This document shows positions 1,415 to 49,610 of a stretch of DNA of 64,000 nucleotides, piece after piece. Every line of letters begins with the position of its first letter. Position 1 is the stretch's first letter. This DNA is from Squalus acanthias. Taxonomy: Eukaryota. The notes beneath the pieces were generated by a model. That model made no database searches and was not told the origin of the DNA. It saw only the letters and a program-made list of their open reading frames with translations. Position numbers and translations under genes: made by a program. Location of the stretch: assembly GCA_030390025.1 (NCBI GenBank), contig CM059432.1, positions 15,812,001-15,876,000 of the forward strand, in the 5' to 3' direction.

Positions 1415-4400
1415 CATAAGAACATAAGAATTAGGAGCTGGAGTAGGCCATTTGGCCCCTCGAGCCTGCTCCGCCATTCAATAAGATCATGGCCGATCTT
1501 CTACCTCAACTCCACCTTCCCGCACTATCCCCATATCCCTTAATTCCCTTAGTTCCCAAAAATTTATCGACCTCTGTCTTGAATATACTCAATGACTGAG
1601 CATCCACAGCTCTCTGGGGTAGAGAATTCCAAAGATTCACCACCCTTTTAGTGAAGAAATTTCTCCTCATCTCAGTCCTAAATGGCCGACCCCTTATTCT
1701 GAGTCTGTGACCCCATGTTCTAGATTCCCCAGCCAGGGGAAACATTTTCTCAGCATTAACCCTGTCAAGCCCCTTAAGAATTTTATATGTTGCAATTAGA
1801 TCACCTCTCATTCTTTTAAACTCTAGCGAATATAGGCCTCAATCTCTCCTCATAGGGCAATCCCCTCATCCCAGGAACCAGTCTAGTGAACCTTTGTTGC
1901 ACTCCCTCTAAGGCAAGTATGTCTTCCTTAGGTAAGGAGACCAGAACTGTACATTGTACTCCAGGTGTGGCCTCACCAATGCCATGTATAATTGTAGTAA
2001 GACTTCTTTAATCTTATACTCTAATCTCTTTGTAACAAAAGCTAACATACCATTTGCTTTCCTAATTGCTTGCTGTACCTGCATGTTAACTTTTTGTGAT
2101 TCATGTACAAGGATACCCAGGTCCCTCTGAATGCAAACATTTCCCAGTCTCTCACCCTTCAAAAAGTATTCTGCTTTTTTGTTTTTCCTACCAAAGTGGA
2201 TAACTTCACACTTCCCCACATTGTATTCCATTTGCCATGTTCTTGCCCACTCAGTCAACCTGTCTATATCTCTCTGCAGCCTCTTTGCGACCTCCTCACA
2301 GCTTACTTTCCCACCTAACTTTGTATCATCAGCAAACTTGGATACGTTACACTCAGTCCCTTCATCTAATTCATTAATATAGATTGTTAATAGCTGAGGC
2401 CCAAGCACTGATCCTTGCGGTACCCTGCTATTTACAGCCTGCCAACCCGAAAAAGTCCCGTTAATTCCTACTGTCTGTTTCTGTCCATTAACCAATCCTC
2501 AATCCACGCTAATATATTACCCCCAATCCCATGAGTCCTAATTTTGTGTAATAACCTCTTGTGTGGCACCTTATCGAATGCTTTTTGAAAATCTAAATAT
2601 ACTACATCCTCTGGTTCCCCCTTATCCATCCTACCAGTTACATCTTCAAAAAACTCTAACAGATTGGTCAAACACGATTTCCCTTTCTTAAAACCATGTT
2701 GACTCTGCCTAATCATATTACAATTTTCTATGTGCCCTGTTACCACGATCCCTAATAATAGATTCTAACATTTTGCCTACTACTGATGTCAGGCTAACTG
2801 GCCTATAGTTCCCCGTTTTTTCTCTTCCTCCTTTCTTAAATAGCGAGGTTATGTTTGCTACCTTCCAATCCTTGGGGACTGTTCTAGAATCGAGGGAATT
2901 CTGGAAGATTAATACCAGTGCATCCACTATCTCTACAGCTACCTCTTTTAAAACCCTAGGATGCAGGTCGTCAGGTCCAGGGGATTTGTTGACACTTAGT
3001 CCCATTAATTTCGCCAGCACCATGTCTTTACTTATACTGATTTCTTTAAGTTCCTCATTCTCTCTAGACCCTTGGTTCCCCATTATTTCCGGAATTTTTT
3101 TGTGTCTTCTACTGTGAAGACAGATACAAAGTATTTGTTTAATGTCTCTGTCATTTCCTTATTGCCCATTATAATTTCTCCTGTCTCGGCCTCTAATGGG
3201 CCCACGTTTACTTTCACTAATCTCTTCCTATTTACATAGCCTATAGAAACGTTTACAATCTGTTTTTATGTCTCTTGCTAATTTACTCTCTTTTTTTCTC
3301 TTTCCTTATCAATTTCTTGGTCCTCCTTTGCTGAATTCTAAAATCCTCCCAATCCTTAGGCTTACTATTATTTTTGGCAACATTATAAACCTCTTCCTTT
3401 GATCTAATACTATCTTTAACTTCTCTTGTTAGGCAAAGTTGGACCACTTTTCCTTTGGGGGTTTTTGTCCCTTAAAGGATGTATATTTGTTGTAAATTAT
3501 GTATTAATTCTTTAAATTGGCCCCATCTGCTCTCTCAGGTGGACGTAAAAGATCCCATGGCACTATTTCGAAGAAGAGCAGGGGAATTATCCCCGGTGTC
3601 TTGGCCAATATTTGTCTCTCGATCAACATAACAAAAACAGATTATTTGGTCATTATCACATTGCTGTTTGTGGGAGCTTGATGTGCGCAAATTGGCTGCC
3701 GTATTTCCCACATTACAACGGTGACTACGCTCCAAAAGTACTTCATTGGCTATAAAGCGCTTTGAGACATCCGGTGGTCGTGAAAGGCGCTATATAAATA
3801 CAAGTCTTTATATCTTTCTTTCCTTCTTAAATGCTAGCCATTGCTTGTCTACCGTCATACCTTTTAATGTAGTTTTCCAATCTACCTTAGTCAACTCACC
3901 TCTCATACCTACGTAGTTTGCTTTGCTTAGATTTAAGACCTTAGTTTCAGACTTAACTAAATCACTTTCAAACTCAATATAAAATTCTACCATATTATGG
4001 TCACTCTTCCCGAACGGCCCCTTTACTATAAGGTTATTAATTAACCCTTTCTCATTGCACAATACTAGATCTAAAATAGCCTGTTCCCTAGTTGGTTCTG
4101 CAACATACTGATCTAGAAAACTATCTTATATACATTCCATGAACTCATCCTCCACATTACTATTACAAATTTGGTTTGCTCGGTCTATATGTAGATTAAA
4201 GTCCCCCATGATTACTGTATTACCCTTGTTACATGCGCCTCTAATTTCCTGATTTATACTCTGCCCTACATTACAACTACTGTTTGAGGGCCTATAAACA
4301 ACTCCGACCAATGTTTTCTGCCCCTTGCTGTTTCTTCGCTCCATCCAAACTGATTCTACTTCTTGATTTTCCAAGCCAAGATCCTTTCTCTCTACTGTCT

Positions 4401-8180: not shown

Positions 8181-8335
8181 ATGTGGAGATGCCGGTGTTG
8201 GACTGGGGTGGACAAATGAGAGAAGTCGCACAACACCAGGTTATAGTCCAACAGTTTTATTTGAAATCACAAGCTTTCGGAGCGCTGCTCCTTCGTCAGC
8301 TGAAGTGAAGAGATGTATATCGGCACAGCATATAT
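8181..8335 (-). mobile_element. Penelope-like element terminal fragment carrying a hammerhead motif
   Basis: 12-bp TSD AGGTGAACAATG at 8169-8180 and 8336-8347; minus strand contains CTGACGAAGGAGCAGCGCTCCGAAAGCTTGTGA. Confidence 0.75.
8267..8303 (-). ncRNA. Minimal type I hammerhead ribozyme motif (stem I has a mismatch next to the core)
   Basis: UCAG-CUGACGA-A-GGAGC(AGC)GCUCC-GAAA-GCU-U-GUGA; core, stem II and palindromic stem III (AGCU) present. Confidence 0.7.
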
Positions 8336-9077
8336 AGGTGAACAATGCTTAAGTTCCTGAAGCTGACTTGCGGTGGGGGGGGGGGGGGGGGGGAAAGGCC
8401 TAGAATTAGTAAAACATTTAGCAAATAGCAGTAAGACTGTATTTGCATCCTTTAAAATTACAGCGCTTTTTTTTATTCTGGAGACAGTGCTGCAAAGTTA
8501 ACAAAGTGACCTCCGCATGCTGCTGGAGATAGGAAAAAAAAAACCACCTTGCCAAGCAGCTTCATTCCATATCTGAGGGCCGTGGCTTTGCCACCGGCAG
8601 ATGTAAATGGCTGCCGTCGCGCCCTCAGCCTGCCGTCCAGGCTAGCAGAGCAGGTTTCACATCTGTGGACCGATACGTTAAGTCCTAAATATGTCTCGTG
8701 TCAGGATGGATAAACTTGTATATTCAGGAGTCACGGGAAAGCCGTCTTCAGGAGCAACCCTGCTGAAGAGGTTTTGCTCGCGGATGTTACTGTTCATCCA
8801 GATTAATGTAAAATATAAAGTTCTTAACAGTTTTATGAGTCATTTTGTCAAACGATTCTGCCCGAAGCACAGCTGTAGTGCAAAATAACAGCTATAAAAG
8901 TAAGCCAATAGCGCAACCTACTCTTGTTTCAGTGACTAAATAGAGTTGTTGTTTTCGGATCCTCACACTCTTCCCTTGGGAAATAGTGGGAAGCGGTGGA
9001 AGGATTTGCAGGCTGATTAACAGTCTGACAGGCTGCTCCTTCCATGGCCGTAGCAATCTTCATACCAGCCGAATATT

Positions 9078-9452
9078 ATTGAAATATATAAGATTCTGAG
9101 GGGGATTGACAGGATAGATGCTTAGAGGTTGTTTCCCCTGGCTGGAGAGTCTAGAACTAGGGGTCACAGTCTCAGGATAAGGGGTCGGCCATTTAAGACT
9201 GAGATGAGGAGGAATTTCTTCACTCAGAGGGTTGTGAATCTTTGGAATTCTCTACCCCAAAGGGCTGTGGATGCTGAATCGTTGAGTATATTCAAGGCTG
9301 AGATAGATAGATATTTGGACTCTAGGGGAATCAAGGGATATGGAGATCGGGCGGGAAAGTGAGGTTGAGGTTGCAGATCAGCCATGATCTTATTGAATGG
9401 CGGAGCAGACTCGAGAGGCCGTATTGCCTACACCTGCTCCTAATTCTTATGT
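9078..9452 (+). mobile_element. CR1 3' fragment
   Basis: ORF 9129..9362 FPLAGESRTRGHSLRIRGRPFKTEMRRNFFTQRVVNLWNSLP plus CR1 3' UTR. Confidence 0.92.
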
Positions 9453-9799
9453 AGTTAGTTGGTCTGTATGCAGCCCAATGAGCGGTCCTTAAGGGGACTA
9501 CTGGGAGCCACCACGAAAAAGGTAAGTTCTTTAAAAAAAATACTTACCTGAATGTAGAGTCGTGAGGTGGAGGAGTGCTCCTCCCAGGTTCACTGCAGTG
9601 CCGAAGACCGATACCAGTACCGCACGGGACCCTCCCGATCGTCCCCGTCCCTCTCGCTCGTCCCCCTCCCTCCCGATCACCCACCTCCCCCCCCCGATAG
9701 TAACCCTCACTCCCGATCATCCACCGCCCTCCCAATCGCCTCCGCCCACCCCACCCCACCCCCACTTCTCCTGATCGCCCTTCTCTCTCGCTCGCTAGC

Positions 9800-15739: not shown

Positions 15740-16910
15740 ACAAGTTTCCACACAAGAGATTGGTGAGCAAAGTTAAAGCACATGGGATTGGGGGTAATGT
15801 GTTGACGTGGATTGAGAACTGGTTGGCACACAGGAAACAAAGAGTAGGAGTAAATGGGTACTTTTCAGAATGGCAGGCAGTGACCAGCGGGGTACCGCAG
15901 GGTTCGGTGCTGGGACCCCAGCTGTTTACATTATATATTAATGATTTGGACGAAGGGATTAAATGTAATATCTCCAAATTTGCGGATGACACTAAATTGG
16001 GAGGCAGTGTGAACAATGAGGAGGATGCTAGGAGGCTACAGAGTGACTTGGACAGGTTGGGTGAATGGGCAAATATATGGCAGATGAAGTACAATGTGGA
16101 TAAATGTGAGGTTATCCACTTTGGTGGTAAAAATAGAGAGGCGGACTATTACCTGAATGGTGGCAGATTAGGGAAAGGGGAGGTGCAATGAGACCTGGGC
16201 ATCATGGTACATCAGTCATTGAAGGTGGGAATGCAAGTGCAGCAGGCAGTCAAGAAAGCAAACGGAATGATGGCCTTCATAGTAAGGGGATTTGAGTACA
16301 GGAGTAGGGAGGTGATGCTGCAGTTGTACAGGGCCTTGGTGAGGCCACACCTGGAGTATTGTGCGCAGTTTTGGTCTCCTAACTTAAGGAAGGACATTCT
16401 TGCTATTGCGGGAGTGCAGCGAAGGTTCACTAGATTGATTCCTGGGATGACCGGACTGACATATCAAGAAAGATTGGGTCAACTGAACTTGTATCCTCTG
16501 GAGTTCAGAAGAATGAGGGGGGATCTTATAGAGACATTTAAAATCCTGACTGGTTTAGACAAATTAGATGCGGGCAGAATGTTCCCAATGGTAGGGAAAA
16601 CTAGAACCAGGGGTCACAGTCTAAGGATTAAGGGGAAGCCATTTAGGACTGAGCTGAGGAGGAACTTCTTCACCCAGAGAGTGGTGAATCTATGGAATTC
16701 TCTTCCACAGAAGGTTGTTGAGGCCAGTTCGCTAAATATATTCAAAAGGGAGTTAGATATAACACTCACAACTAGGGGGATCAAGGGGTATGGCGAGAAA
16801 GCAGGAATGGGGTACTGAGGTAGCATGTTCAGCCATGAACGCATTGAATGGCGGTGCAGGCTCGAAGGACCGAATGGTCTACTCCTGTACCTATTTTCTA
16901 TGTTTCTATG
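15740..16910 (+). mobile_element. 5'-truncated CR1 (RT and C-terminus)
   Basis: ORFs 15568..16191 and 16204..16818 with GVPQGSVLGP, KFADD, RPHLEYC; single in-frame stop; (TTTCTATG)n tail. Confidence 0.95.
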
Positions 16911-18504
16911 TCCTTCCAAACTCTGGGGTCACTAAACCCCACCATGTCCCCCAGTGTTGCTATATGCCAGGTACCTACCTCAAACAAAGTACAGTACATT
17001 TATCCAGTGCTTAAAAGAAGATAAGAGCTAAAAAATTAAGTGCATAGATAAAGGACCATAAATTAATAATCAATTAATTTACACTTTTCATGAAAATCTG
17101 AATGGAATTGTGGAACTTGATCTCCAAACATCCCAGAAAGCCTTGTAGTAAAAACATAATTTGACTTATTCAGTCACCATAGATGTATGACCTTGATAAT
17201 ACATTTAGCATTGCATGGGACCTCTAACTTACTGCTATTTAGAAAATAAGTTTTGTAAGTTTTAAGTTTCCATAACACTCATGAATATTCATGTTTCATT
17301 TAAGGGTAACTTATTTTGGTTGGTTTTTTTGTTGCAATTTGATGGTAATAGAATTTAGCTAAGGGTGTATAATAAAGCCTACGAAAAGATAGCACTGGAT
17401 TTTAAGGGGAGAAAGATCTCGTGTTCTCAGCTTAGAATATAGCTTAATGATATCATGATAGCAGTGGCCTATATCTGGCCTTCCAATTCGAGCTGCCAGC
17501 TTTCTACCAGCTCACTATATTCCATCAGATTGGGAGTGTTAATGTGTGGCTGATCAGTGCCTAGCCCGGTGCTTCTTGCCCTTGCCCCTGTTCTACTTGC
17601 TGAATTTTGTATTTAATGAGGCATCCTTCAGGAATTGATACATTTCATTCCCCATGTAGTTTTTTTTCCATATTTTAAAAAGAAAATTGCTTTTGCAGAA
17701 TTGGATATCTTCTGTGAAGGATAGCTTCTCTCAATTTGCTGCCTTCATTTTATTTTCTAACAAAAAACTTTCTAAAATGTATATTTTTGGTTCCAGCTAC
17801 AATTTGATAAACTACAACTTGCATGGGATCCAGTGCCCAAATACATGGTGACCATTTAAGTCAGTGGTGCAGAGAACCCCGACATATCTCGGTGGCTGCA
17901 TTCTACAGCCGTGACGTGAGACCGTTACTCCCTCTGAGAAAAAGACCGTTTAGAGCCACAGATCAATGAGCACGGAACACTTGGGCTCTTACAGTCTCCT
18001 CTCCTGTAGTTTTATCATTGGATTGAATGTTGTATTTTTTTTCTTTCTGTGGTACATTTGAGCCACCATCAAAGGTTTAAAATGTAGTAAAATTAATGGC
18101 CGCGTTATGGATTCAAGTCTATTTAATGTAAAAAAAAAAATGCGCAATACACAAATTAATTGCTGGAAGAAGAGTCTCCTTAATGTTGAAGCGTTGATCT
18201 GTGAACACTTATTTCAACACGCTAGTACAGGCCATGAGGAATGTAACTACTGGGTCTAATAAAGTCAATGGACCCAGTTTGTAAGACACTGATCATTTAA
18301 AGCATGGGTTTTAGAACTATCGCGTGATTACACTGATGTTGGTGTGAAAGTTTCACCCCCCACCCCCACCAGTATCCTTTTTGTCACATCATCTCCCTGA
18401 AGTAGGGTAAATATTTTGTGGAGATGCCGAGATTATTTGTGGTTTAACACTTTTTAAAACAGTTTGTGCAGCCCCAAACATAAGAACTCTCATCAGGTTT
18501 AATC

Positions 18505-19971: not shown

Positions 19972-20473
19972 GTAAGGAATGCAATTAGGTCGCAGCGACT
20001 GCGGTTTTTACCAAGATGATGGCTTTCAGTGTGAGGCGAAGGGAAAAAAAAGAAAGGGAAGCTGTTACTTGTGTGCTTAAAGTAGAAGCTGAAGAGTGTG
20101 CATGACTTGGTTACCATTGTTACCACTGCATCACGAGGAAATAAACCAGTTAAAAGTGAGTTTGTCATTCCGGCAGCAGGGTCAAGAGTCGTACAGAGAG
20201 GACTTACATTGGAATTGCTCGATTTGAATGAGTACTTGGCAGTCGCAGTTACCACACTGGCTGACTATCACAAAGTTTAATTGATTGTACTGTCAATATA
20301 AACCTTTTTGGTCAGTACCATTGGCCGGTTCAGTTGAGCAAAACCTTTGGCCTTAGAATGACTCTGATTGTTCATTACCAATAAATACACCGAACAGAGA
20401 TTAAAAAGAAATAAAAACAGAAAATGCTGGAAATACTCAGCAGGTCAGGCAGCTTCTGTGGAGAGAGAATCAG

Positions 20474-20510
20474 AGTTAACGTTTCAGGCCGATGGCCCTT
20501 CGTCAGAACT
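20474..20510 (-). ncRNA. Minimal type I hammerhead ribozyme (PLE-associated)
   Basis: AGUU-CUGACGA-A-GGGCC(AUC)GGCCU-GAAA-CGU-U-AACU. Confidence 0.82.
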
Positions 20511-20655
20511 GGAAAAAGCTGGAGATCGAACAGGCTTTTAAGCAAGTGCAGGGGCAGGGAGAGGGGGGAGGGGAGGAAAGAAAAAAAGGGAAGGTCTGTG
20601 ATAGGATGGAAGGCAGGAGAGATTAAGAGACATTAAGAGAGGGTGCAAGGCAAAA

Positions 20656-23600
20656 TATCCTTGTGGGAGGGTTTGCTAGTGCTGTTGGGGAGGGTTTAAA
20701 CTAGCTTGGCAGGGGGATGGGAACCTAAGTATAGAGTCAATAGGGAGGGAAGAAAAACTGGAATTGGAAAACAAAAACGTAGAAAGTAAATTGGAAGGAC
20801 AGAGGAATCAAGGGCTAGATAGTAGTCAACAAGGAGGTTTGCCTGTACTAAATGGTATATACGTCAATGCAAGGAGTATAGCTAACAAGGCAGATGAGCT
20901 GAGGGCACAGGTCGATACTTGGGACTATGATATTATAGCTATTACAGAAAGGTGGCTGAAAGAGGGGCAGGTATGGCAGCTCAACATTCCTGGTTACAGG
21001 ATTTTCAGACGGGATAGAGAGGGAGGTAAAAAGGGAGGGGGGGTCGCGGTATTGATTAAAGAAACTATTACAGCTGTGAGGAGGGATGATATGTTGGAGG
21101 GATCATCAAACGAGGCCATTTGGGTAGAATTAAAAAACAAAAAAGGGGTGATCACAGTGCTGGGAGTGTACTACAGACCCCCAAACAGTGAGAGGGAGAT
21201 AGAAGAACAAATATATCGACAAATTTCTGAGAAGTGCAAAAACTATAGGGCAGTAATAGTAGGGGATTTCAACTACCCCAATATTAACTGGGATAAAATT
21301 AGTGTGAAGGGTATAGAAGGTGCGGAATTCCTAAAATGCATCCAGGAGAACTTTTTTAGTCCGTATGTAGCAAACCCAACAAGGGAAGAGGCGGTGCTGG
21401 ACTTAGTTTTAGGGAATGAAGCTGGGCAGGGAGAAGGCGTATCAGTGGGGGAGCATTTTGGTGCTAGTGACCATAATTCTGTAAGATTTAAGGTAGTTAT
21501 GGAAAAGGACAAGGATAGACCAGGAATAAAAATTCTAAATTGGGGAAAAGCAAATTTTGCTAAGCTCAGAGGGAATTTAGCCATAGTGGACTAGAAACAG
21601 CTACTTGAAGGTAAATCAGTGTCAGAGCAGTGGGAGGCATTCAAGGAGGAGATACGGAGGGTTCAGACCAAACATGTGCCCTTAAAGAAAAAAGGTGGGA
21701 CTAACAAATCTAGAGCCCCTGGATGTCTAGAGACATACAGGGTCGGATAAAGAAAAAAGGGAGGCGTATGACAGATACCGAGGGCTGAATACTCCAGAAT
21801 CTTTAGAGGAGTACAGAAAGTGCAGGGGTGCAATTAAAAAGGATATTAGGAAAGCAAAGAGAGAGCATGAAAAATTCTTGGCAAGTAAAATCAAGGAAAA
21901 CCCAAAGATGCTTGATAAATATATTAAGAGTAATAGGATAACTAAAGAAAGGGTAGGGCCTATTAGAGATCATGAGGGTAATCTGTGTGTGGAGGCGGGA
22001 GACATCGGTAGGGTTCTTAATGAATACTTTGCGTCTGTTTTCACAAAGGAGAGGGGCGAAGCAGACATTGCTATCGGGGGGGAGGAGTGTGAAATATTAG
22101 ATGAAATAAACATAGTGAGAGAGGAAGAATTAAGGGGTTTAGCAGCTTTAAAAGTGGATAAATCCCCAGGCCCGGATGAAATGTATCCCAGGCTGTTAAG
22201 CGAAGCAAAAGAGGAAATAGCAGAGGCCCTGACCATCATTTTTCAATCCTCTCTGGCTTCAGGTGTGGTACTGGAGGACTGCTAATGTGGTAACCTTGTT
22301 TAAAAAGGGAGAAAAGGATAGACCGAGTAATTGCAGGCCAGTCAGCCTAACCATGGTGGTGGGAAAATTATTGGAAAGAATTCTGAAGGACAGGATAAAT
22401 CTTCATTTAGAAAGACACGGATTAATCAAGGATAGTCAGCGCAGATTTGTTAAGGGAAGGTCGTGTCTGACAAACTTGATTGAATTTTTTGAGGAGGTAA
22501 CAAGGAGGGTAGATGAGGGTAGTGCATTTGATGTAGTGTATGTGGACTTTAGCAAGGCTTTTGATAAGGTTCCACATGGCAGACTGGTCACGAAGTTAAA
22601 AGCCCATGGGATCCAGGGCAAAGTGTCAAGTTGGATTCAAAACTGGCTCGGAGACAGGAAGCAGAGGGTAATGGTTGATGGGTGTTTTTGTGACTGGAAG
22701 GCTGTTTCCAGTGGGGTTCTGCAGGGCTCAGTACTAGGTCCCTTGCTTTTTGTGATATATATCAACGATCTTGATTGAATATAGGGGGTATGATTAAGAA
22801 GTTTGCAGATGATACTAAAATCGGCTGTGTGGTTGATACTGAAGAAGGAAGCTGTAGACTGCAGGAAGATATCAATAAATTGGTCAGGTGGGCAGAACAG
22901 TGGCAAATGGAATTCAATCCGGAGAAGTGTGAGGTAATGCATTTGGGGAGGGCTAACAAGGAAAGGTAATACACATTAAATGGTAGGACACTGAGTAGTG
23001 TAGAGGAACAAAGGGACCTTGGAGTGCATGTCCACAGATCCCTGAAGGTAGCAGGCCAAGTAGATAAGGTGGTTAAGAAGGCATATGGAATGCTTGCCTT
23101 TATTAGCCGTGGCACAGAATACAAGAGCAGGGGGGTTATGCTTGAACTGTATAAAACACTAGTTAGTCCTCAGCTAGAGTACTGCGTGCAGTTCTGGTCA
23201 CCACATTACAGGAAAGATGTGATTGCACTAGAGAGGGTACAGAGGAGATTTACAAGGATGTTGCCAGGAGTAGAGAATCTTAGCTATGAGGAAAGACTGG
23301 ATAGGCTGGGTCTGTTTTCCTTGGAACAGAGGAGGCTGAGGGGAGACCTTATTGAGGTGTATAAAATTATGAGGGACATAGATAAATTGGATAGAAAGGA
23401 CCTCTTTCCCTTAGCAGAGGGGTCAAAAACCAGGTGACACAGATTTAAAGAAATTGGGGGAAGGTTTAGAGGGGATTTGAGGGGAAATTTCTTCATCCAG
23501 AGGGTTGTGGGGGTCTGGAACTCACTGCCTGAAAGGGTGGTAGAGGCAGGAACCCTAACCACATTTAAAAAGTACTTGGATGTGCACTTGGGATGCTCTA

Positions 23601-23722
23601 ACCTGCAGGGCTACGGACCAAGAGCTGGGAAGTGGGATTAGGCTGGATAGCTCTTTGTTGGCCGGCGCGGACACGATGGGCCAAAATGGCCTCCTTCCGT
23701 GCTGTAACTTTCTATGATTCTA
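20656..23722 (+). mobile_element. CR1 LINE, almost complete ORF2 (APE endonuclease + RT), degenerate
   Basis: YVNARSI, IIAITERWL, VGDFNYP, SDHNSV, YVDFSKAFD, KKFADD in successive ORFs; TTCTATGA tail; the Penelope arm resumes right after it. Confidence 0.95.
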
Positions 23723-26242
23723 GGAAAAGGAGATGGTAATAGGACAAGTTAAGAAACAAAAGATGGCTCTAGATGAAGTGTAAATGGCAGAATGAAAGAC
23801 AGCTGCCATGTGTGAGAGAGAAAAAAAAATGGAAAAAGAAGAATAGGGGCAGAGGTTATGGTCTGAAATTGTTGAACTCTATGTTGAGTCCAGAAGGCTG
23901 TAAAGTGCCTAATCGAAAGATGAGGTGACTGTTCCTCGAGCTTACGTTGAGCTTCATTGGAACAGTGTAAGAGGCCGAATACTGTGAGGTCAGAGTGGTA
24001 GTGGAGCGGAAAATTAAAGTGACAGGCGACCGGAAGCTCAGGCTCACCCTTACGGACTGAACGGAGGTGTTCCGCAAAGCGGTCACCCAATCTGCGTTTG
24101 GTCTCCCCAGTGTAGAGGAGACCGCATCGTGGGCAGCAAATACAGTATACTAAATTGCAAGAAGTACAAGTAAATCGCTGTTTCACCTGGAAGGAGTGTT
24201 TGGGGCCCTGGACAGTGGGAAGGGTGGAGGTAAAAGGGCATGTGTTGCATCTCCTGCGCTTGCACGGGAAGGTGCCGGGCGAAGGGAAAGGGGTGTTGGG
24301 GGTGGTAGAGGAGTGGACCATGGTGACGCGGAGGGAGCGGTCCCTTTGGAATGCTGAAAGGGGAGGTGAGGGGAAGATGTGTTTGGTGGTGGCATCACGC
24401 TGGAGGTGGCAGAAATGGCGAAGGATGATCCGTTGAATGTGGAGGCTGGTGGGGTGAAAGGTGAGGACAAGGGGAACCCTATCGTGGTTCCGGGAGAGAG
24501 GGGGAAGGGGTGAGAGCAGAAGTGCGGGTGAGTGGAGTCAAAGGAGAAGTTGTTCAATGTGAGAACAAGTTCAGCCAGGCAGAGGAGGGTAGTGGTTGAT
24601 GGGGACTAGTTGGGTCTCTGTTCAAGAAGAAGCGGAGCGCCCTCAGGCCATCCTGGTGGGGGATGGAGGTGTAGAGGGATTGGACGTCCATAGTGAAAAG
24701 GAGATGGTTGGGGCCAGGAAACTGTTAAAGTGACGGAGGGCGTCGGAAGAGTCGCGGATGTAGGTGGGAACCTGCATGGGTCCGAGCCATGCCTGCCTTT
24801 TCCTGGGATATGTGGAACATTCTTTGTTCCAGTCCTACTCAGGTCCCCTCCCTCACCTCTTTTTCCGGTACATTGATGACTGTATCGGTGCTGTTTCCTG
24901 CTCTCGCCCTGAACTAGAAAATTTCATTCACTTTGCTTCCAATTTCCACCCTTCCCTCACCTTCACATGGTCCATCTCCGACTCTTCCCTTCCCTTCCTC
25001 GACTTCTCTGTCTCCATCTCTGGGGATAGGCTATTGACAAACATTTACTACAAGCCCACTGACTCGCATGGCTACCTGGACTACACTTCCTCCCACCCCG
25101 CTTCCTGTAAGGACTCTATTCCATTCTCCCAGTTTCTCCGTCTCCGCCGCATCTGCTCTGACGATGCCACCTTCCATACCAGTGCTTCCGACATGTCTTC
25201 CTTTTTCCTCAACTGAGGATTCCCCTGTACTGTGGTTGACACGGCCCTTGACCTGTGTCCGTTTTATTTCCCGTACTTCTGCTCTCACCCCTTCCCCTCC
25301 CTCCCGGAACCACAATAGGGTTCCCCTTGTCCTCACCTTTCACCCCACCAGCCTCCACATTCAACGGATCATCCTCCTCCATTTCCGCCACCTCCAGCGT
25401 GATCCCACCACCAAACACATCTTCCCCTCACCTCCCCTTTCAGCATTCCGAAGGGAACGCTCACTCCGCGACACCCTGGTCCACTCCTCAATCACCCCTA
25501 ACAGCCCTTCCCCTTCGCCCGGCACCTTCCCGTGCAAGCGCAGGAGATGCAACACATGCCCTTTTACCTCCCCTCTCCCCACTGTCCAGGGACCCAAACA
25601 CTCCTTCCAGGTGAAACAGCGATTTACTTGTACTTCTTGCAAATTAGTATACTGTATTTGCTGCTCACGATGCGGTCTCCTCTACATTGGGGAGACAAAT
25701 GCAGATTGGGTGACCACTTTGCGGAAAACCTCCATTCAGTCCGTAAGGGTGACCCCGAGCTTCCGGTCGCCTGTCACTTTAATTCTCCGCTCCACTCCCA
25801 CTCAGACCTCACCATCCTCGGCCTCTTACATTGTTCCAATGAAGCTCAACGTAAGCTCGAGGAACAGCACCTCATCTTTCGATTAGGCACTTCACAGCCT
25901 TCTGGACTCAACATAGAGTTCAACAATTTCAGACCATAACCTCTGCCCCTATTCTTTTTTTTCTCCATTCATTTTATTTATTATATATTTTTTTTCTCTC
26001 TCCCACATGGCAGCTGCCTTTCATTCTGCCATTTACACTTCATCTAGAGACATCTTTTGTTTCTTAACTTGTCCCATTGCCATCTCCTTTTGCCTTGCAC
26101 CATCTCTTAATGTCTTTTAATCTCTCCTGCCTTTCATCCTTTCATCCTATCACAGACCTTCCCTTTTGTTCTTTCCTCCCCTCCCCCGCTTTTCCCTGCC
26201 CCTACACTTGCTTAAAAACCTGTTCGATCTCCAGCTTTTTCC

Positions 26243-26279
26243 AGTTCTGACGAAGGGTCATCGACCTGAAACGTTAACT
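26243..26279 (+). ncRNA. Minimal type I hammerhead ribozyme (PLE-associated), sense to lama1 pre-mRNA
   Basis: AGUU-CUGACGA-A-GGGUC(AUC)GACCU-GAAA-CGU-U-AACU; stem I AGUU/AACU, palindromic stem III ACGU, GUU cleavage triplet. Confidence 0.82.
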
Positions 26280-26432
26280 TTGTTTCTCTCTCCACAGAAG
26301 CTGCCTGGCCTGCTGAGTATTTCCAGCATTTTCTGTTTTTATTTCAGATTTCCAGCATCTGCAGTATTTTGCTTTTGTTTTAGAGATAAAAAGAAACTCT
26401 ACAAATGCTGGAAACCCAAAATAAGACATAAA

Positions 26433-26657
26433 GGGGGAGAAATTGGGTTGCTTTGTGCCTCCCATTAGCGCTGTTGCATGTAGCACCACGATATTCAATG
26501 GTAGCGCCCCAGGAAGGGGGGGAGAACGCTTCCAGTAGCGCCCCGCCTACTGCTTGGGTTAATTTACAGCGCAGGGGCGCTAACTTTTTCGGGGCGCTAA
26601 AAGTAGCGCCCTGGCGAAATTAGTGCCCCAAAAGGGGCGCCACCGAATTTTTCCCCC
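26433..26657. mobile_element. Harbinger-type MITE
   Basis: GGGGGAGAAATT ... AATTTTTCCCCC, 3-bp TSD AAA; AGCGCC-rich interior like 55366-56249. Confidence 0.75.
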
Positions 26658-30132: not shown

Positions 30133-30268
30133 TTATAAACAGAAAATGCTGGTAATACTCAGCAGGCCAGGCAGCATCTGCGACGAGAGAAACAAGAGTT
30201 AACCGAGTATTTCCAGCCTTTTCTGTTTATATTTCAGATTTCCAGCATCCGCAGTATTTCTGCCTTTG
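30133..30268. mobile_element. Tiny inverted Penelope-like end fragment
   Basis: aaacagaaaatgctggtaatactc...gagttaac joined to gagtatttccagccttttctgttt; homologous to both termini of 20412-26381. Confidence 0.8.
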
Positions 30269-30270
30269 TA

Positions 30271-43400: not shown

Positions 43401-43728
43401 CCGTCTTTCAGATGAGACGTTAAACCGAGGCCCCGTCTGCTCTCTCAGGTGGACGTAAAAGATCCCATGGCACTATTTCGAAGAAGAGCAGGGGAGTTAT
43501 CCCCGGTGTCCTGGCCAATATTTATCCCTCAACCAACATAACAAAAACAGATTATCTGGTCATTATCACATTGCTGTTTGTGGGACCTTGCTGTGCACAA
43601 ATTAGCTGCTGCATTTCCCACATTACAACAGTGACTCCACTTCAAAAGTACTTCATTGACTGTAAAGCGCTTTGAGACGTCCGGTGGTCGTGAAAGGCGC
43701 TATATAAATGCAAGTCTTTCTTTCTTTC
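43401..43728 (+). mobile_element. SacSINE1-like DeuSINE, 5'-truncated
   Basis: Deu core and gaaaggcgctatataaatgcaagtctttc tail. Confidence 0.88.
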
Positions 43729-44672
43729 ACATACAAAGCAAACTTTAATGACGAGATGCTGAATTAAATGCATGGGCGTCTTTGCAAACTGCTTAATGTC
43801 TCTTGTAAAACACTGCTTAATGAGATTTGAAACTGTTCCTTTTATAGTCTTCCCCTTGGTGACTTATTGTTTTTTCATTAATATTTCAGTGACTAGTTTA
43901 CCAGTTGCAATTACTGTAAAACATGTCATGTCAAACAAAAAAGGCTGCAGGATGACAAAAAATAGGTATTCACTCTGGGAAAACTTCCCCTCACAATGAT
44001 ATTGCAGAAGGGGCGGTAAATCCTATCACTAGATCGGACCATATGCTGTCAGTCCATAAGGGTTTCTGTGTTAACTGAAGACAGATGTTCTCTGGGAATG
44101 ACAACAGGAGCAGCAATTTCCACGTGGAATAAATTTCTCAAATGCTGAAATCGGTTAATGTGGAACAGCTGGAGCTCTTGTGTTCTCGGATGTTGAATGC
44201 AAACAGCTTGAAGAGCTCTCGGCAAGAGATTTGCTAATGTAGATTCATCGTGCTTGAACTTTCAACTTTTTACTAAAATAATTGAGCTCAACTTGACGTA
44301 ACATTTACAATTACCCAAATTGTTTTTTGCAGCAGTAGGGATTCTCCTGCCAACACATGAGGAAAATGTAAAGTAGGCATTAAATGTGTTTCCCATTTCA
44401 TTCAGTGCACCTAACTTGAAAACGCTCAGCTGCCAGTGTTTAATTAAAATGATTAGTCGCCGGTTAGAAGTGTATTATTGGACAACAGTTTGATCCATTC
44501 TTGAAACATTTGGTGGGTTATTCTTCAACGCTGCAATCCTATGGAATAGACCTCACAGAAGTCACTTAGGTCTCTGCTCCTTTTTAACCTTCTATACCGT
44601 TTCAATATAGCCAAGTTGTTCTAAAATATATGGCTGTCTGGAAATAGAACAGAGGGGAAAGTAGTACAAGCA

Positions 44673-49132: not shown

Positions 49133-49610
49133 CATAAAAACAGAAAATGCTGGAAACACTCAGCAGATCAGGCAGCATCTGTGGAGAGACAACAGAGTTA
49201 ACATTTCAGGTCGATGCCATTTCATTCTCTTCTCACAGTTCAGAACTAAAAATTGCATTCGACTGGTTATTAAAGGATCTCGAACTAGATCCGGTGGCCG
49301 ATTATTAATTCCCACACTGCATTCACTTGTAATGCCTACGTTACAACAGTGATTACATTTAAGGTGCCAGAGAGTGGTGAACCTGTGGAATTCTCTACCA
49401 CAGAAGGCAGTGGAGGCCAATTCATTAAATATATTCAAGAAGGAGTTAGATATATTTCTTAAGGCTAAAGGGATCAAGGGATATGGGGAGAAGGCAGGGA
49501 CAGGGTACTGAATTTGGATGATCAGCCATGATCTCATTAAATGGCGGAGCAGGCTCGAGGGGCCGAATGGCCTACTCCTGCTCCTATCTTCTATGCTTCT
49601 ATATAAATGC
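49133..49610. mobile_element. Degenerate Penelope-like end (about 49133-49250, minus) followed by a CR1 3' fragment (about 49365-49600, plus)
   Basis: aaaacagaaaatgctggaaacactcagcag...gagttaacatttcaggtcgatg with a broken hammerhead; then RVVNLWNSLPQKAVEANSLNIFKK. Confidence 0.8.

Follow-up and report, generated by a model that had tools for sequence, protein, structure and literature searches.

A locus of Squalus acanthias raises the question of whether the two arms of an inverted Penelope-like element (PLE) were copied from one source or from two. The stretch analyzed, hereafter the window, comprises 64,000 nucleotides (nt) of contig CM059432.1 (assembly GCA_030390025.1, positions 15,812,001 to 15,876,000), and all positions below are counted from its first letter. 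Each arm of the element carries a 37-nt hammerhead ribozyme motif, at 26243-26279 on the plus strand and at 20474-20510 on the minus strand. The initial annotation had reported both motifs, had noticed that a U-A pair of stem II in one is replaced by C-G in the other, and had read this swap as support for a real RNA structure and as a hint that the arms derive from different source copies. The motifs were found at these coordinates and on these strands, and the swap proved to be the sole difference between them. The proposed origin was not upheld, as the evidence below points to one source lineage, and the swap is probably a private change rather than a common family allele. The motif and the element are almost certainly both of the known kind. 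The object is an ordinary one, a further decayed example of a class described in 2014, and the inference drawn from the swap was over-read.

Two minimal hammerhead motifs on opposite strands

The motifs differed at two of 37 positions, with T at 26258 against C at 20495 and A at 26264 against G at 20489, and these positions pair with each other in stem II. A structural descriptor of the minimal hammerhead identified exactly these two sites in the 64-kb window, while 100 dinucleotide shuffles gave a mean of 0.01 sites and a maximum of one. A sequence pattern with up to two mismatches gave six matches in the window (two of them exact), against 1.23 expected. Both copies contain the CUGANGA core, the GAAA, an N-U-H triplet (GUU), an extra A (at 26254 and 20499, respectively), and a palindromic ACGU at 15.1-16.1 without a loop III. 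Helix II is composed of five base pairs (bp) and helix I of four, within the class ranges of 4-8 and about 4-5. The right motif lies approximately 300 nt past the stop codon at 25937-25939, in the pseudo-long terminal repeat (pLTR) downstream of the open reading frame (ORF), which is the usual location in the class. The G10.1-C11.1 closing pair was absent, with G·U in both arms instead, and this pair would seem to be a consensus feature of the class rather than a gate. By hammerhead numbering, the cut sites are predicted after 26275 on the plus strand and between 20478 and 20477 on the minus strand.

Stem II had a pair probability of 0.98-1.0 in both motifs, and the hairpin is stronger in its C-G variant (-6.2 kcal/mol) than with U-A (-4.1 kcal/mol). 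An alternative register, in which the extra A pairs with U and one G is bulged, was rejected, since the 5-bp register has a probability of at least 0.98 and the relatives leave the A unpaired. Folding z-scores (1.18 and 0.13 over 76 nt; -1.29 and -2.02 over 37 nt) carried no information either way. Helix I pair probabilities were merely 0.23-0.55. Two observations speak against the assignment to hammerheads: the lowest-energy fold of a monomer pairs the core with CGUUA (-9.1 and -11.2 kcal/mol, compared to -5.9 and -8.0 for the hammerhead), and no Rfam hammerhead model matched. At the gathering threshold Rfam gave no match in the window, and none of its 15 weak matches in 26100-26420 was a hammerhead; this silence would be expected if the Rfam hammerhead models need helix III.

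Minimal hammerhead ribozymes (min-HHRs) in PLE repeats were defined by Cervera and De la Peña (2014; PMC4209133), where an additional nucleotide placed between 9 and 10.1 is given as a hallmark of PLE hammerheads. Counted by eye, the 56 rows of their Fig. S3 include the extra nucleotide in 54, a G·U closure in eight, an A-U closure in three, and a GUU triplet in 15. The G-C closure is thus the norm there, highly conserved and not invariant, and nothing on a G·U closure was found in PMC544870. Table S1 and Fig. S3 of PMC4209133 list no cartilaginous fish. Motif pairs on opposite strands are already described in that paper, as is the activity of the published minimal motifs, in which monomers were inactive and dimers weak.

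Related loci served as an independent test set, of which the best 80 of 446 confirmed loci (43-62% identity) were considered. The descriptor identified 15 motifs, 11 of them distinct, in 12 of these 80 loci; when all loci were shuffled 20 times, it found none. Where at least 1,300 nt were available downstream, eight of 37 loci had a motif 600-1,600 nt past the match to the reverse transcriptase (RT). All 11 distinct motifs had the extra A, no loop III, and a G-C closure. A covariance model built from these 11 relatives alone ranked both window motifs first (33.1 and 32.5 bits), with the next match at 14.8 bits. The initial description of the element as a PLE whose hammerheads are minimal, of type I, and palindromic in helix III was borne out. 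The extra A, which had been called non-canonical, is instead typical of the class. The same label for the G-U closing pair holds insofar as G-C is the norm, but not in view of the eight published cases.

In the alignment of the 11 motifs, 76 of 77 cells pair and six of seven pairs change on both sides; these counts are partly a matter of construction, as the descriptor demanded pairing, and do not amount to independent proof. Among the loci on metagenome contigs, L002 and L032 have the same head-to-head motif pair and L004 has a direct pair. The motif of L032, whose RT piece is 54% identical, matches letter for letter the Neptune motif of Acropora digitifera in Fig. S3 of PMC4209133. An exact-pattern scan of the metagenome contigs for the motif of the window family, with a pattern that demanded G at 10.1, gave no matches.

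Other sequences of this type were also observed in the window. At 8269-8303 (minus strand) lies a hammerhead-type end, now decayed, that belongs to a second family (E 0.22). Its core and extra A are as in the two motifs above, its 5-bp stem II is a different one and has a G-C closure, its palindrome is AGCU, and its helix I is broken. An older, third copy of the family at about 49133-49250 (minus strand) has its catalytic core interrupted by a 15-nt insertion and its stem II broken. With A at the position of 26264 and G at that of 26258, it was too decayed to inform on the swap. A 136-bp fold-back mini copy occupies 30134-30269; the start of its left arm precedes the predicted cut site by about 3 nt, and a tail is present on its right arm only.

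Variation within the family

Contigs of four runs were aligned to 26180-26440 at 80% likeness, and differences were listed from 5%. The contigs placed numbered 76,633 (X1), 82,766 (X6), 96,443 (X10), and 3,053 (X9). The runs span three organisms (X1 and X9 from organism A, X6 from B, and X10 from D), and X1 may be the sample of the window itself. That X9 is an RNA run is no more than a guess, and nothing about this locus follows from the family contigs in it. All allele shares are weighted by depth, biased to the reference, and given per site without linkage, and depth sums were not used as copy numbers.

Within the motif, variants of at least 5% occurred at N7 (C>T, 21-27%), in loop II, at CpG sites, at 10.1 (G>A, 43-62%), and weakly at 17 and 1.1. 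The change at 10.1 turns the G·U closure (26255 and 26267) into A-U, a one-sided change by which pairing is kept, and in three organisms each of the two forms made up about half of the depth. C at 11.1 stayed below 5% in all four runs; the window family has lost the usual G10.1-C11.1 pair. The CpG formed by C11.1 and G12 may have allowed G-C to become G·U and then A-U. The alternation at the closing pair is better evidence of constraint than the stem II swap. T26258C was below 5% of family depth in all four runs, where all tallied T>C sites were accounted for, and A26264G was below 5% in three of the four.

At 26281-26300 (plus strand), the family majority has an ATG at 26298-26300 that is preceded by a pyrimidine tract and CAG; both arms read AAG in place of the ATG. 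The majority sequence might provide a 3' splice site and the start codon for the ORF of a next unit. A second pyrimidine tract and CAG end at 26347.

Origin of the stem II swap

Aligned as inverted repeats, the arms differed by 59 substitutions over 1,050 columns (5.6%). Both arms have G at 26226, where the family depth reads C at 94-95%, and A at 26299, where it reads T at 96-99%. At 15 variable sites, defined by a variant share of at least 10% in X1, the arms differed twice, compared to 6.4 differences expected for a random family copy (p 0.002, a value that assumes an independence of sites which does not hold). Two shared alleles, each carried by at most about 6% of the family, and so few differences at variable sites indicate that the arms came from one source lineage, which contradicts the idea of different source copies; sister templates of that one lineage are possible.

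The divergence between the arms is compatible with their age. A younger long interspersed nuclear element (LINE) splits the left arm and has three stops in 2,910 coding sites, corresponding to approximately 2.6% decay (95% confidence interval 0.5-7.7%). Since the LINE was inserted later, each arm is at least as old. Lesions numbered 3.8 per kb in the PLE and 2.0 in the LINE, and all three coding indels between the arms were private. The ratio of non-synonymous to synonymous differences per site (pN/pS) between the arms was 0.64-0.78, based on 13 synonymous and 26 non-synonymous changes, and did not depart significantly from 1 (p 0.13-0.29). Decay was approximately 3% per arm and alone can account for the 5.6%. 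The most likely origin of the swap is two transitions, either independent or with one templated on the other, in the left arm when the element inserted or later.

Several observations count against this explanation. Under independent decay, a double change that preserves a pair has a chance of 1.1% per pair of arms, and the same swap with no other change in 37 nt a chance of 0.15%. The arms also differ at a true polymorphism, 26308 G/A (A at 28-57%), for which the chance by decay is about 0.34. The CpG excess was only 2.2-fold (8/70 versus 51/980, p 0.05) and pN/pS leaned below 1, a pattern that would fit some difference present at birth. Run X10 has one unplaced A>G site at 5% or more, possibly 26264. 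Additionally, the lineage of the arms makes up at most about 4-6% of depth, and a variant common inside it would stay under the 5% limit. The swap is nevertheless weak evidence, because about 1 in 100 two-armed copies of this age would show one by chance and this copy was picked for showing one. Of the initial reading, the reality of the structure stands at the level of the family, to which a swap selected post hoc adds little.

Among the other explanations, the least unlikely has two slightly different RNAs, or tandem units, of one rare sub-lineage serving as the templates of the two arms within one (possibly dimeric) integration complex, the C-G pair having evolved in an active source through U·G before it was inherited. 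This would relieve the low chance probability of the swap and accommodate the difference at the polymorphic 26308, the weak CpG excess, and the pN/pS under 1, though none of these hints is significant. A PLE protein with a predicted dimeric form, which cleaves both strands and also extends them, has been described (PMC11167929), and over the part copied into the left arm the template of the right complementary DNA (cDNA) would be in use. The shared alleles at 26226 and 26299 and the two differences at 15 sites leave room only for very close sisters that differ little, the LINE clock can cover the entire 5.6%, and the C variant is below 5% in all four runs. We regard this explanation as rather unlikely.

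Later gene conversion, either between the arms or of a short stem II tract from an unrelated C-G copy, is improbable. Inverted repeats and a huge donor pool (the contigs of X1) would provide the opportunity, and the motif region 26219-26279 contains no other difference between the arms, but no tract was seen, as differences are scattered along both arms, and the shared rare alleles 73 nt apart have arm-private changes between them (26258, 26264, 26280, and 26283). An error of assembly or consensus, from reads of another copy or from polishing, is more improbable still. The locus is a high-copy repeat in an inverted structure, and the comparison with reads covered the right arm only; against this, a fraction of 0.93 of the words sampled from the left flank is present in X1, both arms have private decay and intact target duplications, and reads of another copy, if they were the source, would mean that the variant still exists in the family. 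Origin by private change within one source lineage remains the preferred explanation.

Identity and organization of the element

Of 216 candidates, 95 were homologs of the RT piece at E<=1e-20, and the best of those with a name came from Chiloscyllium, Hypanus, Mobula, and Amblyraja (65-72% identity), which makes a cartilaginous fish the probable host. A PLE-type RT is followed by a C-terminal GIY-YIG endonuclease (EN), matched at E 0.00096, below the Pfam cut-off, in whose right-arm copy a CxxC is located between GIY and YIG. An inverted 5'-truncated copy, a one-sided tail, and a target duplication complete the layout of an EN+ PLE. The CX4CxxC linker between RT and EN is present in both arms and falls within the CX2-5CxxC of Neptune. 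Such a Zn-finger linker marks Neptune or Nematis, not Penelope or Poseidon (PMC8557442), and among vertebrates a 2026 preprint (10.64898/2026.07.22.740005) found no PLEs other than Neptune and Poseidon. By its linker, the element would be a Neptune-type PLE of a very abundant family, and the copy, 5'-truncated and decayed, appears to be dead on arrival. A non-LTR retrozyme was ruled out, as the hammerhead copies are inverted and flank coding fragments rather than forming non-coding tandem units on the same strand.

The span 20396-26396 is one PLE insertion plus a later LINE (Table 1), which we take to be of the CR1 type. The arms of the inverted element reported initially are real, while most of the interval 20474-26279 is not a simple inverted structure, as the 3-kb LINE splits the left arm. 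The left arm as a whole runs on the minus strand from 24528 down to 20409 with the LINE inside, and its inner piece differs from 25270-26093 by 46 substitutions over 803 columns. Aligned to the homolog P0002, the inverted RT piece covers about residues 321-404 and the right arm begins at about residue 413, with some 8-9 codons missing between them.

Table 1. Features of the insertion in the window and hammerhead-bearing repeats at three related loci
Feature	Sequence	Positions	Strand	Remarks
Target-site duplication, left copy, 15-16 bp	Window	20396-20411	+	Matches 26382-26396; one indel; shares its last 4 nt with the arm end
Left (inverted) arm, outer piece: 3' untranslated region (UTR) / pLTR, without tail	Window	20409-20655	-	13 substitutions/247 columns versus 26088-26344
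Minimal hammerhead, stem II C-G variant	Window	20474-20510	-	33.1 bits (covariance model)
Later LINE insertion, APE endonuclease and RT	Window	20656-23721	+	7-8 bp duplication-like repeat; 3 stops, 3 frameshifts
Left arm, inner piece: RT thumb end, Zn-finger linker, GIY-YIG, start of 3' UTR	Window	23722-24528	-	2 frameshifts
Inverted middle RT piece, present once	Window	24529-24769	-	tblastn with homolog P0002; 2 frameshifts, 1 stop
5-nt overlap (microhomology) at head-to-head junction	Window	24765-24769	.	Overlap inferred from protein alignment
Right arm, coding part: C-terminal half of RT (YIDD), CX4CxxC linker, GIY-YIG	Window	24765-25939	+	1 stop, 2 frameshifts
Right arm, 3' UTR / pLTR	Window	25940-26345	+	Arm comparison
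Minimal hammerhead, stem II U-A (family majority)	Window	26243-26279	+	32.5 bits (covariance model)
Tail, about 35 nt, right arm only	Window	26346-26381	+	Family loose ends at 26343-26344 and 26376-26378
Target-site duplication, right copy	Window	26382-26396	+	Pairs with 20396-20411
Inverted hammerhead-bearing repeats	L002	1005-1133 with 3536-3663		A single base of the stem II/loop region differs between the arms
Inverted hammerhead-bearing repeats	L032	1986-2579 with 3770-4360		
Direct hammerhead-bearing repeats	L004	910-1110 with 3976-4176		

In the three DNA-type runs, the ends of family contigs clustered approximately 33-35 nt apart, at 26343-26344 and 26376-26378. These clusters match both arm ends as well as the two reverse-transcription start points described in PMC11167929. 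Contigs that switch strand between 26343-26344 and 26376-26382 also recurred in the same three runs. The right flank at 26382-26433 (minus strand) aligns over 47 columns with the same tail in reverse orientation and is itself an old copy of it, hence the element landed at an older family end. Elsewhere, the window includes many further LINE 3' fragments and a short interspersed repeat family, present on both strands, for example at 9073-9457, 16192-16924, and 43401-43729.

A proposed mechanism

The layout of the junctions looks like the product of the twin priming mechanism, for which PMC3649969 gives no more than a citation. In the proposed sequence of events, the GIY-YIG nuclease of the element would have cut both target strands, and two cDNAs would have been primed at the two usual start points, one with the tail and one without. 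After approximately 1,070 nt, the left cDNA may have changed to the template immediately upstream of the place at which the right cDNA had ended and copied about 240 nt more, after which the ends would have been joined through the 5-nt overlap. From the layout of the middle RT piece, a deletion in the left arm after insertion would be an alternative to the template jump. The best explanation as a whole, including the origin of the swap, is held with moderate confidence.

In the active parent the motif was probably a weak self-cleaving RNA assisted by dimerization or by protein, which would have cut after GUU, with the ACGU palindromes of two sense copies pairing as helix III. The Anolis motif shows protein-assisted cleavage and is dispensable for insertion in vitro (PMC11167929). 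At the present locus the motifs lie on opposite strands, so that no single transcript has a sense pair and no cis dimer can form, and a cis double hammerhead of the two arms was accordingly ruled out. A read-through transcript would bury the motif in an arm-arm duplex, for which -63 kcal/mol was calculated over the motif, compared to -8.5 and -12.7 kcal/mol for double-hammerhead folds.

A tentative extension, which we consider doubtful, is that the locus preserves a two-template integration, in which two cDNAs were primed by a single dimeric PLE complex, each on a different sister RNA, and the C-G and U-A pairs were inherited. The left cDNA would then have moved to the template on the right, just ahead of the point where the right cDNA had stalled. 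Were this true and general, the arm differences in tens of thousands of shark fold-back copies would make the origin of inverted pLTRs testable, and the family would represent a hammerhead lineage that lacks the G10.1-C11.1 pair yet is still under selection for pairing.

The by-products of the analysis are modest: a very large PLE family of cartilaginous fish that closes helix II by G·U or A-U and not by G-C, and an insertion whose junctions resemble twin priming. Such families could be used to examine how inverted PLE arms are made and whether hammerheads are under selection, for which genome-wide data are needed rather than one swap. No description of PLE hammerheads in sharks was found in the literature searched; subscription papers and Repbase were outside its scope, and the supplements of the 2026 preprint, in which one chondrichthyan genome was screened for hammerhead retrozymes (10.64898/2026.07.22.740005), may list the family.

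Comparison with known systems

The insertion shares its head-to-head arms, one-sided tail, and target duplication with the EN+ PLE units described by Craig et al. (2021; PMC8557442) and Arkhipova et al. (2013; PMC3846280), in which an adjacent inverted 5'-truncated copy and a 30-40 bp tail on one side are reported. The order of RT, CX2-5CxxC linker, and GIY-YIG is that of the Neptune/Nematis type (PMC8557442). Unlike the units described in those accounts, the present copy lacks both a full ORF and a direct 5' pLTR, and its left arm is fused to an inverted middle RT piece and split by a LINE. The Anolis Poseidon element PAc (Frangieh et al., 2024; PMC11167929) similarly has two preferred 3' ends that define the tail and a hammerhead just upstream. 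It differs in belonging to the Poseidon clade, without the Zn linker, and its hammerhead was assayed in vitro.

Among the min-HHRs of PMC4209133, the likeness extends to the core, the extra nucleotide, the GAAA, the palindromic 15.2-16.2 without a loop III, the short helix I, the U-rich 5' flank, and the position in the 3' repeat. In contrast to the usual G-C, the family described here closes stem II by G·U or A-U. Type I hammerheads of the dimer type within repeats are also found in the Dolichopoda satellite pDo500 (PMC2837043) and in non-LTR retrozymes (10.64898/2026.07.22.740005). Compensatory stem changes among genomic hammerhead copies have already been reported for pDo500, with 19 such changes in 13 of 198 sequences (PMC2837043). 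Both systems are composed of tandem repeats on the same strand, where cis dimers are possible, whereas the motifs of the Squalus acanthias element are inverted and lie in a coding PLE fragment.

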